Origin: Candidatus Bathyarchaeota archaeon
Lineage (GTDB): Archaea > Thermoproteota > Bathyarchaeia > Bathyarchaeales > Bathycorpusculaceae
Length of the DNA stretch: 64,000 nt
Assembly: GCA_963832745.1 (NCBI GenBank)
Contig: CAWHVC010000004.1
Coordinates: forward strand, 167,754-231,753
Direction of reading: 5' to 3'
The translations under genes were made by a program, and so were the position numbers. The number at the start of each line of letters is the position of its first letter. The first letter of the stretch is position 1. Shown in pieces: positions 5,703 through 40,351 of this stretch. The notes beneath the pieces were generated by a model. The model was not told the origin of the DNA. It saw nothing but the letters and a program-made list of their open reading frames with translations, and ran no database searches.

Positions 5703-6167
5703 TTGACAACTCCTCATGACGTACCCGCATCCAAGTTCATCGATAGGTTAGCAAAGTACTTGAAAGAAAATGTCGATGAAGTTCAACCATTGCCATGGAC
5801 AAGCGTAGCTAAAACAGGCATGCACGTTGAAAAACAGCCACAGAATCCAAACTGGTGGTATGTTCGCAGCGCATCTGTTCTGCGTAAAGTTTACATTCAT
5901 GGTCCAATCGGCATAGAAGACCTAAGGGCTGATTATGGTGGAAGAAAAAACCGTGGCAGCAAACCTGACCGCGTAAAAAAATCTGGCGGAAGCAGCATCC
6001 GCAAAGTTCTCCAACAGCTCGAGGCAGCAGAATTAATCGTTACCAGCCGTCCAGAAGGAAGAAAAATGTCTCCAAAAGGACGCAAACTACTTCAAGAAGT
6101 TGCTGGTGACCTGCAGAAAGAAATGATAAAAACTGTCCCAGAGCTCAAGAAGTATCAAGGCGAATAA
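5703..6167 (+). CDS. rps19e: 30S ribosomal protein S19e (eS19)
   Basis: HDVPASKFIDRLAKYLKEN...NWWYVRSASVLRKVYIHGPIGIEDLRADYGGRKNRG is the eS19 signature. TTG start, TAA stop. Confidence 0.9.
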   Translation: MTTPHDVPASKFIDRLAKYLKENVDEVQPLPWTSVAKTGMHVEKQPQNPNWWYVRSASVLRKVYIHGPIGIEDLRADYGGRKNRGSKPDRVKKSGGSSIRKVLQQLEAAELIVTSRPEGRKMSPKGRKLLQEVAGDLQKEMIKTVPELKKYQGE

Positions 6168-6172
6168 GTAAG

Positions 6173-6502
6173 ATGTCAGATGACGAGCTTGAGAATATTC
6201 GGAAACGAAAACTTTTGTCTATGCAGAATCGCGTAAGCGATGAGCAAAGGCAAGCTCAAGCTGAAGATAAAATTGAAGCTCAGAAGCAGGCGTTGCTTAG
6301 GCAAATCCTGTCACCTGAAGCAAGACAACGGCTTAACAACCTGAAAATGGTGCGAGCCGACTTCGCAGAGCAAATTGAACTGCAGCTGATCCAGATGGCT
6401 CAAATGGGCAAGTTGCCTATTCCGTTATCTGATGCTCAGCTTAAACAAATCCTGTTGCAGCTTCAATCACGCAAGCGAGAAACAAAAATTACAAGGATAT
6501 GA
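6173..6502 (+). CDS. PDCD5/TFAR19-type DNA-binding protein (MTH1615-like)
   Basis: LRQILSPEARQRLNNLKMVRADFAEQIELQLIQMAQMGKL matches the family, and the position between rps19e and rpl39e is typical in archaea. Confidence 0.8.
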   Translation: MSDDELENIRKRKLLSMQNRVSDEQRQAQAEDKIEAQKQALLRQILSPEARQRLNNLKMVRADFAEQIELQLIQMAQMGKLPIPLSDAQLKQILLQLQSRKRETKITRI

Positions 6503-6506
6503 GAGA

Positions 6507-6665
6507 ATGGCAAGAGTAAAACCAACCGCGAAAAAACGCCGATTAGCTAAAGCATCAAAGGAATCAACGTCTGTTCCAACATGGGTAGTCGCAAGAACTG
6601 ACGGCAAAGTCAGAGTTACACCTAAACAAAGACGGAACTGGCGAACAAGAAAAATAAAGGCATAG
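6507..6665 (+). CDS. rpl39e: 50S ribosomal protein L39e (eL39)
   Basis: MARVKPTAKKRRLAKASKESTSVPTWVVARTDGKVRVTPKQRRNWRTRKIKA. The ATG at 6507 lies inside the longer tracked ORF 6432-6665. TAG stop. Confidence 0.9.
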   Translation: MARVKPTAKKRRLAKASKESTSVPTWVVARTDGKVRVTPKQRRNWRTRKIKA

Positions 6666-35513: not shown

Positions 35514-36944
35514 ATGTCTCAACCCCAAGACGCTAATGTAGTGGTTCCTGAAAAAATCGATTACAAAACTTCAGATTCAGTATCTAAATACTGGCTGTAC
35601 TCTGCTATACTATGGTTTCCAATTTTTGCCACTTTTGGCTTCATAATGGCAATCAAATTTTTTTATCCTACATTTCTAATCGATTCAGCTTTTGATACAT
35701 TTGGAAGAATCCGGCCAGCACACGTTAACGGGTTGCTTTTTGGCTTTTTATCTTCAGGCCTTATCGGCGCCATGTATTACGTTGTTCCCCGATTAAGCCA
35801 CGTATCTCTGTATAAGCCACAGATTGGAAAAATATCTGCTGTATTGTGGAATGTTGCGGTTTTAACTGGTGTGCTTCTCATTATGGGTGGGGATACTCAG
35901 GCTAGAGAATACGCCGAGATGCCTTGGATAATTGATGTTCTTGTAGTCATTACATTAATTCTAATAGGAATCACAATAATTGGAACAATACTGAAACGGA
36001 AAGAACGTAAACTTTATGTGAGTTTATGGTTTTTCGCGGCTATTTTCCTTTGGTTCCCCATAGTCTATTTCATAGGAAACGTAATGTGGAATCCTCCAAC
36101 AGGTGCACTTTATGGCTTAACAGACGCCATCGTCAACTGGTTCTACGGACACAACGTGTTAGGCTTATGGTTTACTCCTTTCGGGTTAGCTTTATGGTAT
36201 TACTTTATACCTAAACTTACTAAAAGAGCATTATACAGCGTAACATTATCGTTGATTAGCTTCTTTGCATTAGCGTTTTTCTACACTGGAGTTGGCGGTC
36301 ATCACTTGCTTCAATCCTCAATTCCTGAATGGCTAAAAACAATCGCTGTTGCAACAAGCGGTCTTATGATGCTTTCAGTTCTAACTTTCGCCACTAACAT
36401 AGGCATGACAATGCGTGGCGCTTGGCATTCATTTTTAAGCAATGTACCTTTAAGGTTCATTCTTTTCGGTTTTATCTGCTACATATTTGTCTCTATTCAA
36501 GGAACCTTTCAAGCACTTCGCGATATGAACCTCTACTTGCATTACTCTCAATGGACTGTAATGCATTCACATTTGGCATTATACGCATCATTCGGTATTA
36601 CCATAATGGGCATAATGTTCTACGTTATCCCAAAAATTTCCGGAAAACAGCTTTACAGCAAAAAATTGATGGATGTAACTTGGTGGGTTTCACTGCTTGG
36701 TTTTGTAATTTTCATGATGGGCATGTTACTGGCTGGATTAGTAGCTAACGCAGGTTGGTTTACAAGTCAAACAATAGCGCAAGTTTTGCCACTGCTCCCT
36801 CCTTACTTTATTATACGAGCAATAGGCGGCGGAATAGTTGTTGTATCTGCTTTCCTGTTCGCTATTAACATTATAATGACAATTTTGTCCAAACCAACAG
36901 GTGAAGAGTTGACTAAACAAACAATGGTGGTGCAGCAGGCATGA
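35514..36944 (+). CDS. ccoN: cbb3-type (C-family) haem-copper oxidase catalytic subunit CcoN
   Basis: RPAHVNG (haem b His), NWFYGHNVLGLWFT (compare CcoN WWYGHNAVGF), GVGGHHLL (CuB His pair), VMHSHLALYASFG (haem b3/b His pair). 12 TM, 476 aa. Confidence 0.85.
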   Translation: MSQPQDANVVVPEKIDYKTSDSVSKYWLYSAILWFPIFATFGFIMAIKFFYPTFLIDSAFDTFGRIRPAHVNGLLFGFLSSGLIGAMYYVVPRLSHVSLYKPQIGKISAVLWNVAVLTGVLLIMGGDTQAREYAEMPWIIDVLVVITLILIGITIIGTILKRKERKLYVSLWFFAAIFLWFPIVYFIGNVMWNPPTGALYGLTDAIVNWFYGHNVLGLWFTPFGLALWYYFIPKLTKRALYSVTLSLISFFALAFFYTGVGGHHLLQSSIPEWLKTIAVATSGLMMLSVLTFATNIGMTMRGAWHSFLSNVPLRFILFGFICYIFVSIQGTFQALRDMNLYLHYSQWTVMHSHLALYASFGITIMGIMFYVIPKISGKQLYSKKLMDVTWWVSLLGFVIFMMGMLLAGLVANAGWFTSQTIAQVLPLLPPYFIIRAIGGGIVVVSAFLFAINIIMTILSKPTGEELTKQTMVVQQA

Positions 36945-38527
36945 ATGGCTTCGAGAAAAAACTAGAAAAGAACTTTGAAAGAATAGAAAATGCTGTAACT
37001 AATCAAACAAAACATCGTAAAAAACTAAGCTTCAAAAATCTTTTCCCGTTAGTAGCTGGTGGGGTGGCTGTCTTCCTGCTTATGGTCAGCATGGTTGTAG
37101 TTGCTCCTTACATGTTCCTCTTAGATGTCCCCCCAACCGACACTGCACACGTTTACACCACGCAAGAAGCTGAAGGCAGAAGCCTTTACATGAGTTTAGG
37201 TTGCTTCTACTGCCATTCTCAACAAGTTCGAGCCTCTGACTGGGGACTAGGCAATGTTTCTCAAGAAGGCGACTACGTGTATGACAGCCCGAACTCTTTA
37301 GGAACAGAAAGAACTGGTCCTGACCTTGCTCAAATAGGCGGTATGCGTCCAACTGCTTGGCATCAAATGCATTATAGAGATCCAAGAAGCGTATCTCCCG
37401 GTTCAATAATGCCCAACTTTGAATTCCTAACAGACCAACAAATCGATTCCTTAATCACCTACATACAGAACCTCGGTCAAGAAAACCTACAAGTTCAACA
37501 ATCAATAACTAACGGCTCCGCCTATCACCCGGTAGTTCCTGAAGAATACATAAACGCAACCAACCAGTTTGAACCAATGTATCTAACCGTTTTATCACAA
37601 TATGATGCAACAAATGATGTTTACAATGGCAATGCCTCACTTGCAGATCAATGGGCTGCGATTTATGACGTTGCCAAAGCCGATTACACCCAACGATGCT
37701 TACCTTGCCATGGCTGCTCTGGAAATGCTCAGGGCCCATACGCTCGGCATGTGGTAACTCAACCCGCTAACCTGCATGAAAGAATCGCTACTTTTCCAGG
37801 TGATAACTATCATATCTGGCGAGTGAGTGAAGGTGTGCCTGGAACTGCAATGCCTGCATGGAAGCTTTCTCTAAACAGCACCGAGATTCAGTTAATCGCA
37901 ATTTACGAAATGAGCTTTGTTTTTGGTTCAGCAAGAACTTTTCCAGGAAGCACCTCAGACGATGAAGGCGACAATTACGCATTGACTGTTTTGAATACGC
38001 CGCCAATAAGCGGTACTCAGCAAGATTTCCAGTCAGGACAAGACATTTTTAATTTATACTGCGCTCAATGTCACGGTTCAGATGGTCAAGGTGACGGTCC
38101 AGCATCCATCAATGTTCCTGGCGGATATATCAGCCCTGCTCCAGCCAACTTTACAGAGTCAGGAAGCGACTTCCAATATTATGGCAGATACGTCTGGAAA
38201 GTAAAAGAAGGAGTAGAAACGACCAACATGCCACCATGGAAATACGCCTTATCAGACAACGAAATCTACCAAGCAGTCTTATACGTTCAAAGCTTTTCAA
38301 CAGCACAAGATTACAATTCAAAATGGGCACCACAATACACAGACCCCTATGCAAGAAACCTCAAGATTAACGCTGCATCAAGTAGCTTCACAAGTATAGA
38401 AACTAACCCTGTTGCCGTAATAGCGGTATTGTCCGCTGCTGTGCTTTGGAATCTGCAGGTAAATCGCCAAATTTTACGAACCAAAAATTTAACCTGTTTT
38501 TTACGTTTTAGGAGGAACCTGAAGTGA
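36941..38527 (+). CDS. Tri-haem cytochrome c: CcoO (FixO) domain fused to a CcoP-like dihaem domain
   Basis: ATGA overlap with ccoN. N-terminal TM. CcoO block GRSLYMSLGCFYCHSQQVR...GTERTGPDLAQIGGMRPTAWHQMHYRDPRSVSPGSIMPNF. Then CLPCHG...GTAMPAW and CAQCHG...TNMPPW, followed by a C-terminal hydrophobic segment. Confidence 0.85.
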   Translation: MNGFEKKLEKNFERIENAVTNQTKHRKKLSFKNLFPLVAGGVAVFLLMVSMVVVAPYMFLLDVPPTDTAHVYTTQEAEGRSLYMSLGCFYCHSQQVRASDWGLGNVSQEGDYVYDSPNSLGTERTGPDLAQIGGMRPTAWHQMHYRDPRSVSPGSIMPNFEFLTDQQIDSLITYIQNLGQENLQVQQSITNGSAYHPVVPEEYINATNQFEPMYLTVLSQYDATNDVYNGNASLADQWAAIYDVAKADYTQRCLPCHGCSGNAQGPYARHVVTQPANLHERIATFPGDNYHIWRVSEGVPGTAMPAWKLSLNSTEIQLIAIYEMSFVFGSARTFPGSTSDDEGDNYALTVLNTPPISGTQQDFQSGQDIFNLYCAQCHGSDGQGDGPASINVPGGYISPAPANFTESGSDFQYYGRYVWKVKEGVETTNMPPWKYALSDNEIYQAVLYVQSFSTAQDYNSKWAPQYTDPYARNLKINAASSSFTSIETNPVAVIAVLSAAVLWNLQVNRQILRTKNLTCFLRFRRNLK

Positions 38528-38676
38528 ATATTGACATGTTGATATATACTATAGGCGCTTTTCTCATTACTCTAATAACGGCTGGTTTTGTAGTTTGGGC
38601 TTTCAAGACTAAACAGTTTGAAGCCAACGACTTTTTACGTTACATGCCACTTGAGGAGGACGCAGACGAAGAATGA
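38524..38676 (+). CDS. Small single-TM protein, CcoQ/CcoS (FixQ/FixS)-like. Below the ORF-track size cut-off.
   Basis: AGGAGG at 38512-38517, then GTG 38524 (or ATG 38536). MLIYTIGAFLITLITAGFVVWAFKTKQFEANDFLRYMPLEEDADEE resembles the ...WA.k.GQ(F/Y)DD....R.l.DD pattern. Its stop overlaps the next start (ATGA). Confidence 0.6.
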   Translation: MNIDMLIYTIGAFLITLITAGFVVWAFKTKQFEANDFLRYMPLEEDADEE

Positions 38677-38963
38677 CGTGGCCATTTTACTTAACTGCAT
38701 ATATTGTCTATCTTGATCCAACTTACGTTTACTTTACGTTATTCTTAATTGCAGCAGTTTCAATTGTCATCTACTTAGTTGTCAGAAGTTCGAACGATTT
38801 CTCAGTTGAAGAGACCGAAAAAAACTCTGAAGATTTTGCCGGAGAAGTTCGTGACTCAAACGGTCCAGTGACCAAATGGCTCTGGGTAGTTTATGCTGGA
38901 TTAATAATTTGGGCATTAGCTTATTTGGTTCAGCATTGGAGCGAATTTGCGGTTTTCCCATAA
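38673..38963 (+). CDS. 2-TM protein resembling the N-terminal membrane domain of CcoP (FixP_N-like)
   Basis: GEVRDSNGPVTKWLWVVYAGLIIWALAYLV parallels the CcoP N-terminal motif DGI.E.DNPLPRWW...FYATI.fA.gY. Confidence 0.55.
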   Translation: MTWPFYLTAYIVYLDPTYVYFTLFLIAAVSIVIYLVVRSSNDFSVEETEKNSEDFAGEVRDSNGPVTKWLWVVYAGLIIWALAYLVQHWSEFAVFP

Positions 38964-39025: not shown

Positions 39026-40351
39026 TTGTTACGTTACTTTCAATGGTGTCCTTGTTTGGTTACTGAAAAAGTTACTCGATTTTACGGCTGCCAATTAACC
39101 ACTACTCATTCAGCAAAACAACATAAACTAAGCAAACTAATCGCTTGGCTTTCTGATAAAGAAGCGCCAGACCGAGAATTTATTTCTCTTTACATTCCCC
39201 CGCATATTTCAATAGAGCAAGTGGTAGCAAACATCAAAAAAGAAGCAGAATCAGCAGTTCTTGACTCAAAAAACGCTACTGACCGCCTACAAACCGCAGT
39301 AAAAAACATGCTCCAACATGTCAAAGCAAAAACTGAGTTGCCGGAAAACGGCTTAGCCATTTTTGCAGGAACTTTCCTTGGGAATAACCAAGATAAGCCT
39401 GTTTTAAACGTGGAAGAACTTGTTCCACCTCAACCGATTGCGACGTATCTTTGTAAGGCCGATAACCAGTTCGAGTTAGAACCACTGAGGCAAATGTTAA
39501 GAGATGAACGTATTATTGGTTTGATTTCGTTGGATTCTAAACAGGCAAGTTTTGGGTTGGTTGTAGGTGAACGTTTTGAGCCTCTGAAAAGCATTTCTTC
39601 GGGGGTTATGGGAAAAACTGGTAAGGGTGGCCAAAGCCAGAGACGCTATGAAAGGGAACGTGACATGTCTATCGGTTTCTTTTTTCGCCGAATCGCAGAG
39701 CACGCGACAAAAGAGTTTCTTGAAAACCGCAGCATTACCTTGCTAATAATCGGCGGGCCTGGACAAACAAAAAATGATTTTCTAAAAGGTGATTACCTAA
39801 ATTACATGTTAAAAGATGCTCTTTTTGGCATGTTTGACGTTCAATCAGCAGGTCCAGAGGGCGTCAGGGAAATTTTTGAAAAATCATCTGATAGCCTAAA
39901 AAATGTTTGTTTGCCGGTTGAGCGGAAAGTTATGCAGCGGTTACAGATTGAACTTAACAAGGATGCAGGGTTAGCCATAACCGGTTTAGACCCAGTGCTT
40001 GAAGGCTTAAAAACTGGCGAAGTTGAAGTGGCACTTGTCACGGACTCAACTGATCTGATACAAGCAGATGCTACATGCAAAAAATGTGGTTTAACAAAAA
40101 ATGAACTGCTGCATAAGTCATACATTCAGGGTCTGCAGGAGTTCCTTTCAACGCCCTGTACCCGTTGCAACGCAGTGGATTTCGAGTTGGCTGAAAAAGA
40201 CATCATCGACGTCTTAGAAGACTTGGCTGCACAAACAAAGGCAAGCGTTGAAGTGATATTTACAGGGTCAGACGAAAAGGCGCAGCTTACTACTCTGGGC
40301 GGATTTGCAGCTTTACTAAGATATCGCTCTAACAATGAGGGCCTAGCCTGA
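39026..40351 (+). CDS. prf1: aRF1/eRF1-family peptide chain release factor with divergent stop-codon-recognition motifs
   Basis: FISLYIPP, GKGGQSQRRYERER (GGQ at 39626-39634), C-domain with CxxC...CxxC mini-domain, C-terminal LGGFAALLRYR. The NIKS position reads LDSK. The start is uncertain (TTG 39026 or 39056). Confidence 0.75.
   Translation: MLRYFQWCPCLVTEKVTRFYGCQLTTTHSAKQHKLSKLIAWLSDKEAPDREFISLYIPPHISIEQVVANIKKEAESAVLDSKNATDRLQTAVKNMLQHVKAKTELPENGLAIFAGTFLGNNQDKPVLNVEELVPPQPIATYLCKADNQFELEPLRQMLRDERIIGLISLDSKQASFGLVVGERFEPLKSISSGVMGKTGKGGQSQRRYERERDMSIGFFFRRIAEHATKEFLENRSITLLIIGGPGQTKNDFLKGDYLNYMLKDALFGMFDVQSAGPEGVREIFEKSSDSLKNVCLPVERKVMQRLQIELNKDAGLAITGLDPVLEGLKTGEVEVALVTDSTDLIQADATCKKCGLTKNELLHKSYIQGLQEFLSTPCTRCNAVDFELAEKDIIDVLEDLAAQTKASVEVIFTGSDEKAQLTTLGGFAALLRYRSNNEGLA

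Follow-up and report, generated by a model that had tools for sequence, protein, structure and literature searches.

An aRF1 paralogue without stop-codon-reading motifs and with a constrained, remodelled GGQ loop, a candidate third A-site factor in one Bathyarchaeia family

[quoted passage not shown] The mechanically called open reading frame (ORF) extends from 39026 to 40351 and encodes 441 amino acids up to a TGA stop. Its product scored 327.8 bits against the TIGR03676 aRF1 profile, the cut-off of which is 234.7, and was matched by Pfam eRF1_1, eRF1_2 and eRF1_3, and it thus has the full three-domain aRF1 architecture. Its HMMER alignments with solved chains ran from end to end, both for 4af1 (E-value 4.5e-52) and for human eRF1 (1.6e-37). 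The likeliest coding sequence is slightly shorter, from 39056 to 40351 on the forward strand (431 amino acids, TTG start and TGA stop). The TTG at 39056 is most likely the true start rather than 39026, because the best homologue (P0001) begins there, the conservation among orthologues begins there and the start codons are aligned; the aligned position holds a start codon in most of 25 orthologues (TTG in 21, GTG in 1 and ATG in 1). The in-frame upstream extension of the mechanical ORF (39026 to 39055, forward strand) is probably untranslated; its residues are not conserved in the orthologues, in which conservation sets in from the LVTEK motif on. Residues of the paralogue are therefore numbered here from 39056. 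The canonical aRF1 genes of the same genus (1492-2757 of locus L001, and loci L090-L116) are also apparently started by TTG or GTG and not by ATG, so that this lineage may habitually begin its two kinds of release-factor gene with codons other than ATG.

The original prediction had described the product of this gene as a release-factor homologue that keeps the GGQ motif and lacks the NIKS, GTS and YxCxxxF motifs by which stop codons are read. This description was borne out by profile, structure-chain and joint alignments, in which all three decoding positions of domain N are substituted; in the joint alignment, 25 paralogues were set against 92 canonical aRF1s of Bathyarchaeia. The NIKS position had been read as LDSK at 39260-39271. 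Its coordinates and the loss of the motif are upheld, but its register is uncertain by one residue, as NIKS was aligned to LDSK by BLASTP with the genome's own canonical aRF1, to VLDS by HMMER with 4af1 and to DSKN by HMMER with human eRF1. None of these three alignments gives N-I-K. The alignment with e/aRF1, which had been taken to be ungapped, is not strictly gap-free, and the column of the NIKS Asn falls in a one-residue deletion in 25 of the 25 paralogues of the joint alignment. The equivalent of the NIKS loop lies at the tip of the alpha2-alpha3 hairpin (residues 66-76, SAVLDSKNATD, 39251 to 39283, forward strand), which is a loop in an AlphaFold2 model of the protein and sits there between helices 53-65 and 76-90. 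The orthologues differ by indels in this loop, its sequence and length vary among them even within one genus, and its dN (0.52) was the highest of the regions tested.

The two other decoding elements have likewise been lost, in a way that differs in part from what had been proposed. The position of the eukaryotic GTS loop is occupied by D39-R40-E41 (39170 to 39178, forward strand), and the predicted reading DRE is correct when the comparison is made with G31-T32-S33 of human eRF1 in the HMMER alignment. However, the canonical archaeal equivalent is G/H-T-E, namely HTE in the canonical aRF1 of the same genome and GTE in other Bathyarchaeia and in the closest NIKS-bearing aRF1s seen, and the paralogue keeps only the Glu; the canonical Thr is retained in only 2 of 25 paralogues. 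The nonapeptide YLCKADNQF is indeed found at 39446-39472, but it is not an expanded YxCxxxF motif. According to the BLASTP alignment to the canonical copy and to the joint alignment, the equivalent of this motif is C-K-A-D-N-Q-F (39452 to 39472, forward strand), in which Tyr is replaced by Cys and Cys by Ala and the Phe is kept, so that the motif is lost. Of the 25 paralogues, all have V, A, I or L in place of the Cys, and 14 have the Tyr. The NIKS and YxCxxxF motifs have been reported as universal in e/aRF1, with the exception of ciliate NIKS variants and a few archaea with YxTxxxF (PMC2613156). Canonical Bathyarchaeia aRF1 has 169 positions with a conservation of at least 95%; of these, the paralogues keep 15 of 64 in domain N, 31 of 60 in domain M and 16 of 45 in domain C.

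The loop directed to the peptidyl-transferase centre (PTC) has had a different fate. It covers residues 182-203 (39599 to 39664, forward strand) and is the most constrained region tested, with an omega (dN/dS) of 0.03. The GGQ is intact at 39626-39634, as predicted, and is followed by Gln195 at 39638-39640; the copy in the window is thus a GGQ-bearing member of the paralogue clade and carries both glutamines (193 and 195). G191, G192, S194, Q195 and the segment R196-R202 were invariant in all 26 aligned members, but residue 193, the classical Gln, was not. The motif at this residue is GGQ in 15 and GGS in 10 of the 25 genome-derived copies, and among the database members that bear the pattern (117 of the 120 matches listed) it is GGQ in 78, GGS in 27, GGE in 6, GGW in 5 and GGM in 1. 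All 117 have a Gln at the +2 position (Q195), where the canonical protein has Ala in 91 of 92 sequences. Q195 is a new invariant residue specific to the paralogue, as are K190 and E201, which flank the GG loop. The Gln/Ser state of residue 193 changes at least twice on the tree of the paralogues, and the Ser is kept through five different codons. Since at least two base changes are needed to go from a Gln codon to those Ser codons, the Ser is selected rather than drifting. The invariant Q195 may have taken over the role of the replaceable classical Gln, as far as this can be judged from the alignments.

Beyond these motifs, the protein has features of its own and others that it shares with its relatives. 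A paralogue-specific N-terminal extension covers residues 1-17 (39056 to 39106, forward strand), with an invariant C12 and near-invariant F9 and Q13; its columns are gaps or hold other residues in the 92 canonical Bathyarchaeia aRF1s, and residues 1-15 are predicted to be disordered (predicted local distance difference test, pLDDT, below 50 in the model). Helix alpha1 is more basic in the paralogue (K21, Q22, H23). In domain C, a four-Cys insert of the CxxC...CxxC type (40076 to 40168, forward strand) has invariant C341, C344, C368 and C371; this pattern is common to the paralogue and the canonical aRF1 of the same genome and is shared with archaeal aRF1. Near the C-terminus, the motif GGFAALLRY (40298 to 40324, forward strand; G415, G416, L421 and R422 invariant) corresponds to the GILRY-type motif of e/aRF1 and Pelota, to which a role in partner binding has been ascribed (PMC2613156). 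The AlphaFold2 model has a mean pLDDT of 75.2 and a predicted template modelling score of 0.54. When it was searched with Foldseek, the top match was aRF1 4af1 (E-value 8e-35), Balon and Pelota being ranked far lower, and its N domain was superimposed on the eRF1 N-domain structure 2llx with a template modelling score of 0.78 and a root-mean-square deviation of 3.0 A.

The same genome was searched for a second, canonical aRF1 and for Pelota, and both are present. The canonical aRF1 (G000:C3:317159-318385, 421 amino acids), with a TIGR03676 score of 522 bits, retains the NIKS, YxCxxxF and GGQ motifs intact; the paralogue is 33% identical to it. The presence of this canonical copy refutes a highly divergent sole aRF1, one of the two options that the original prediction had left. 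The genome's Pelota scored 261.1 bits on TIGR00111, for a cut-off of 177.65. The canonical aRF1 gene is flanked by ORFs of 335 and 337 amino acids (L001 112-1119 and 2838-3851), which, to judge from their translations alone, may be a topoisomerase IB of the eukaryotic type and a formylmethanofuran-tetrahydromethanopterin formyltransferase. The genome also encodes an NFACT_N protein of the RqcH/Rqc2 type (about 700 amino acids, G000:C2:435492-436844, 219.6 bits). No releasing enzyme is known for an archaeal pathway resembling ribosome-associated quality control, and this NFACT/RqcH homologue may represent a pathway with which a codon-independent release factor is partnered.

The absence of codon reassignment, suggested at first by the ends of genes in the ribosomal-protein region of the window (TAA at 6165-6167 for rps19e, TGA at 6500-6502 for the PDCD5-like gene and TAG at 6663-6665 for rpl39e), was supported genome-wide. 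All three stops are in normal use, as the 1141 ORFs of at least 300 amino acids end with TAA in 759 cases, with TGA in 215 and with TAG in 167, and no tRNA with a stop anticodon was detected by aragorn, whether introns were allowed (47 tRNA genes listed) or not. Codon reassignment and recoding of the pyrrolysine or selenocysteine type were therefore rejected. The aragorn output also contained a tRNA-like gene with an unreadable two-base anticodon (G000:C5:85211-85296) and a tRNA-Gly(CCC) with a 1678-nucleotide 'intron', possibly an artefact (G000:C3:70055-71823).

The distribution of the paralogue was examined at several levels. The closest public loci are from metagenome-assembled genomes of Thermoproteota/Bathyarchaeia, one of them Bathy6, and are 84% and 79% identical. 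With the single protein as query, matches at the level of the paralogue (48-62% identity) were found in 22 of 36 genomes of the same genus; one of these matches is degraded, and two genomes have two copies. In the same family, a profile of 26 paralogues gave a bimodal result: 13 of 151 genomes scored at least 635 bits, and the next best score, that of a canonical aRF1, was 399 bits. The family-level search gave 11 paralogue hits outside the window's genus, in 7 further genera. The search with the single protein gave no paralogue in 24 genomes from 11 further families of this order, where at most canonical-level matches of 31-37% were obtained (23 of 24). In a class-wide sample, the paralogue was detected in 9 of 301 genomes, all from one family (8 of 48, and the genome of the window), and it was not detected in 252 genomes of other Bathyarchaeia families. 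In the protein database, at least 808 clusters at 90% identity match with an E-value of 1e-100 or better, and among the 120 matches listed every name given by the source is release factor aRF-1 or subunit 1. One genome of the genus (G005) has two intact copies from different subclades (L077 4134-5402 and L085 6004-7266), and the tip loop is 4 residues shorter in the second subclade (L085 with L086 and L087). Two genomes of the genus lack a detected canonical aRF1: G027 (94% complete) has the paralogue and a Pelota-like match, and in G032 (92% complete) no aRF1 of either kind was found. As G032 shows no aRF1 whatever, both absences are probably gaps in the assemblies and not evidence for a paralogue standing alone.

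The paralogue is maintained by selection. Intact genes were found at 25 of 27 loci; of the two degraded ones, L088 (G028) consists of out-of-frame pieces and L089, the second copy in G009, contains an in-frame TAG and is split in two. In the 26 sequences, which are 48-85% identical to the protein of the window, 82 columns are invariant. For the 25 closest pairs, omega ranged from 0.11 to 0.26 in the paralogue and from 0.026 to 0.075 in the canonical gene. Among 20 genomes holding both genes (190 pairs), the paralogue had a mean protein identity of 0.62, against 0.86 in the canonical protein, and dN of the paralogue was about 2.7 times that of the canonical gene. When eight independent pairs were summed by region, omega was 0.19 in domain N, 0.11 in domain M and 0.13 in domain C, and 0.05 in helix alpha1. 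No region had an omega above 1, the tip loop included, although dS was saturated in places, also in the tip loop, which makes this a weak test of positive selection. The gene is therefore not a decaying, pseudogene-like copy; trees and omega values point to a distinct, selectively maintained clade, in agreement with the second option of the original prediction, a specialised paralogue. From its patchy distribution and occasional degradation, it is probably a dispensable accessory gene.

The paralogues formed one clade both in a quick tree of 77 rows (100% support in the SH-like approximate likelihood-ratio test) and in a careful tree of 46 rows (100/100). In the careful tree they group (99/94) with the NIKS-bearing aRF1 of the P0002 type and the aRF1 of family f40, and not with the canonical aRF1 of the Bathyarchaeia. 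P0002 is the closest NIKS-bearing relative, and the genomes that match it best (46-55% identity) belong to family f40, in which archaeal AmoA was found in 5 of the 5 genomes tested, i.e. ammonia-oxidising Nitrososphaeria. Duplication within the family was rejected: placing the paralogues and the canonical aRF1 of the Bathyarchaeia in one clade costs 56 log-likelihood units (approximately unbiased test, p = 1.4e-5), a value to be read with the caveats that the group was named after the tree had been seen and that the stem of the paralogues is long (0.76), so that some long-branch attraction is possible. Probably, a Nitrososphaeria-like aRF1 gene was captured by an ancestor within the Bathyarchaeia family and was then remodelled, inherited vertically and frequently lost. 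Some of the closest NIKS-bearing relatives (P0003, P0004, P0005, P0007, P0011 and P0014) contain intein-like inserts that start with Cys and end with His-Asn, giving proteins of 666-1452 amino acids. The inserts interrupt precisely the two motifs of highest conservation, after the Cys of YxC or between GGQ and the next Ser, and some of the proteins carry both.

No conserved neighbour was found when the ORFs of 27 loci were clustered: only the paralogue itself is present in all of them, and no cluster of neighbours occurs in more than 6. The annotated neighbour clusters include a histidine kinase, MarC, a tRNA-splicing endonuclease and an IF-2B-family protein, among others. In the window, the genes directly upstream of the paralogue (36941-38963) encode a FixP_N-like membrane stub and a monohaem subunit of the FixO type to which two further cytochrome c domains are fused; both belong to a cbb3-type oxidase cassette, here carried by a Bathyarchaeon, and a convergent gene for an exoprotein of 865 amino acids lies downstream; cassette and exoprotein gene are unrelated to the paralogue. 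PADLOC gave no match to a defence system, and no copy at the level of the paralogue was found on viral contigs. The only match there, an e/aRF1-like stretch of 33% identity on a 156-kb contig filed as viral (L136 5001-5792, IMGVR_UViG_3300031999_007842), lies outside the clade.

The protein was compared with the known systems that it resembles. It shares with canonical aRF1 (TIGR03676; PDB 4af1, 3agk/3vmf) the three-domain fold, the length, the four-Cys insert, the GG loop, the C-terminal GG..LRY and a score above the cut-off. It differs in having lost NIKS, the Thr of the GTS equivalent and two residues of YxCxxxF (Tyr and Cys), in that the Gln of GGQ is variable family-wide, in its new invariant K190, Q195 and E201 and its N-terminal extension, and in that it coexists with a true aRF1. 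Vms1/ANKZF1, of the VLRF1 clade of the aeRF1 superfamily, likewise has an eRF1-like catalytic domain without stop-codon recognition, a property that we infer for the paralogue. Vms1 is described as a stop-codon-independent, eRF1-like hydrolase with its catalytic Gln in a GxxQ motif (GGSQ in yeast) instead of GGQ (PMC5989216), and G192-x-S194-Q195 of the paralogue has the spacing of this motif. However, Vms1 is without eRF1 domain 1, acts on split 60S subunits and has other accessory domains, whereas the paralogue has all three aRF1 domains and lies inside the classical aRF1 clade. The presence of domains 1 and 3 also sets it apart from VLRF1, and its match to Pfam acVLRF1 (39 bits) lies under the stronger eRF1_2 match. 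Pelota (aDom34) has its central and C-terminal domains in common with the paralogue and works in the A site without codon reading, but it has no GGQ loop and an Sm-like N domain; the 41.6 bits of the paralogue on TIGR00111 are far from the cut-off of 177.65. The bacterial ArfB/ICT1 and PrfH follow the same logic, being release-factor paralogues that kept the PTC loop and shed codon recognition for ribosome rescue (PMC6514570), with an unrelated bacterial release-factor fold and other sensing elements, and the likeness is one of analogy only.

Part of this is already in print, namely that some archaea have second aRF1 genes and that release-factor paralogues have repeatedly been recruited to rescue (PMC6514570). 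Two aRF1 copies are reported in 4.3% of sampled archaeal genomes (PMC12626013), for example aRF1-2 of Methanosarcina, which also stands as an extra gene beside the main one. In the accessible part of that article these copies are duplications linked to genome size, with no motif loss reported, whereas the paralogue described here is foreign and Nitrososphaeria-like. No description of this Bathyarchaeia clade was found in full-text searches, which did not cover supplementary tables or figures.

As its stop-codon-reading elements are lost or variable, the paralogue probably works on ribosomes independently of stop codons. We favour, tentatively and at slightly short of an even chance, the view that it is an accessory third A-site factor that frees nascent chains at the PTC independently of stop codons, probably in ribosome rescue or peptide release. 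The protein would be delivered to the A site like aRF1, presumably by aEF1-alpha-GTP, would bind the ribosome without a stop codon and would place its GG-x-SQ loop in the PTC. The nascent chain would thereby be freed from ribosomes stalled on sense codons or on truncated mRNA, or from damaged ribosomes, and the chemistry would most plausibly be the release or cleavage of peptidyl-tRNA on stalled ribosomes. This view is supported by the aRF1 fold, the constrained PTC loop, the retained C domain, the degenerate and variable decoding elements, the coexistence with aRF1 and Pelota, and purifying selection. A fuller proposal, which we regard as possible but doubtful, is that of a third archaeal A-site factor of one Bathyarchaeia family that is either a stop-independent nascent-chain-releasing or a tRNA-cleaving enzyme, with a Vms1-like shifted G-x-S-Q and a new N-terminal element, derived from an aRF1 captured from ammonia-oxidising Nitrososphaeria.

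Several points weigh against nascent-chain release. Delivery by aEF1-alpha, docking in the PTC and hydrolysis are all steps that we infer from the sequence, and the likeness of G-x-S-Q to Vms1 is one of pattern. Rescue in archaea is normally the task of Pelota, which this genome already encodes, and the gene neighbourhoods, in which nothing is conserved, give no hint of a pathway. In about a third of the members another residue, in some even Trp, stands in place of the otherwise universal catalytic Gln, which could just as well mean that catalysis was abandoned. Domain N, finally, is still under purifying selection, with new invariant residues and a conserved N-terminal extension, and would therefore do something specific, of a kind that we cannot name.

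The main rival explanation, which we consider somewhat unlikely, is a non-catalytic occupant of the A site, i.e. a Balon-like hibernation or protection factor that would occupy the A site and PTC of ribosomes left idle while the cells are dormant in soil or peat. The variable classical Gln and the patchy distribution, as of an accessory gene, would fit such a factor, and bacterial Balon is itself an aeRF1 derivative without decoding and GGQ motifs. Putative archaeal Balons, aeRF1-derived, lacking NIKS and GGQ and proposed as a third A-site factor, are reported beside a working aeRF1 in Methanosarcinia, Syntropharchaeia and Thermoplasmatota (PMC13324472, 2026). These candidates are however defined by the lack of GGQ, whereas in the paralogue constraint is strongest on the two glycines and the loop around them, and the Gln at +2 is invariant. 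The paralogue, which keeps the GG-x-SQ loop, also scored only 27-52 bits on the Balon-family models NF052289 and NF052288, the cut-offs of which are 320 and 480, and it was found only in one Bathyarchaeia family; no Bathyarchaeia are named among the archaeal Balons in the available text of PMC13324472. A role in conflicts, as a factor that relieves or causes the jamming of ribosomes by toxins or viruses and whose variable tip loop reflects an arms race, is improbable. Burroughs and Aravind have argued in general terms that release-factor paralogues are recruited in such conflicts (PMC6514570), and the foreign origin, the patchy distribution, the varying genomic context and a tip loop with indels and the highest dN of the regions tested are in line with it. 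On the other hand, PADLOC gave no match, the viral contigs gave a single match of 33% identity and no copy at the level of the paralogue, the annotated neighbours are housekeeping or sensory rather than defence genes, and omega exceeds 1 in no region.

That the protein is a specialised class-I release factor, reading a subset of stops or contexts through an altered decoding surface, is very unlikely. The intact GGQ of the window's copy and the full-length aRF1 match above the TIGR03676 cut-off would be expected of such a factor, and in ciliates variant NIKS motifs accompany altered stop-codon use (PMC2613156). Nevertheless, orthologues from a single genus differ in both the sequence and the length of their NIKS-loop equivalent, neither the Tyr nor the Cys of YxCxxxF is conserved and a third of the family is without the catalytic Gln, while all three stops are used and a canonical aRF1 of the omnipotent type is present. 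The suggestion in the original prediction that a subset of stop codons might be read is unlikely, as the presumed decoding loop is the one with the highest dN and with indels. Least credible of all is a functionless duplicate on its way to a pseudogene. The higher dN than in the canonical gene, the 2 degraded loci out of 27 (L088 and L089) and the many relatives in which no paralogue was found could be cited for it, but they are outweighed by the low omega across many pairs, the 82 invariant columns in divergent sequences, the at least 808 clusters in the clade and the new invariant residues specific to the paralogue.

Termination and rescue in archaea are generally ascribed to aRF1, Pelota, aEF1-alpha and ABCE1 alone, and the release of peptidyl-tRNA from stalled or split archaeal ribosomes has not been settled. 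A conserved aRF1 derivative in which codon reading has been shed and the PTC loop kept and remodelled is a concrete candidate for that release activity. Since its members pass the TIGR03676 equivalog cut-off, annotation pipelines call them aRF-1, and release-factor counts as well as genetic-code inferences from release-factor motifs can thereby be misled. The clade is also a natural experiment on the indispensability of the "universal" glutamine of GGQ. If stop-codon-independent release of nascent chains is indeed its function, the paralogue would supply the counterpart of ArfB/ICT1 or Vms1 that has been missing in archaea.

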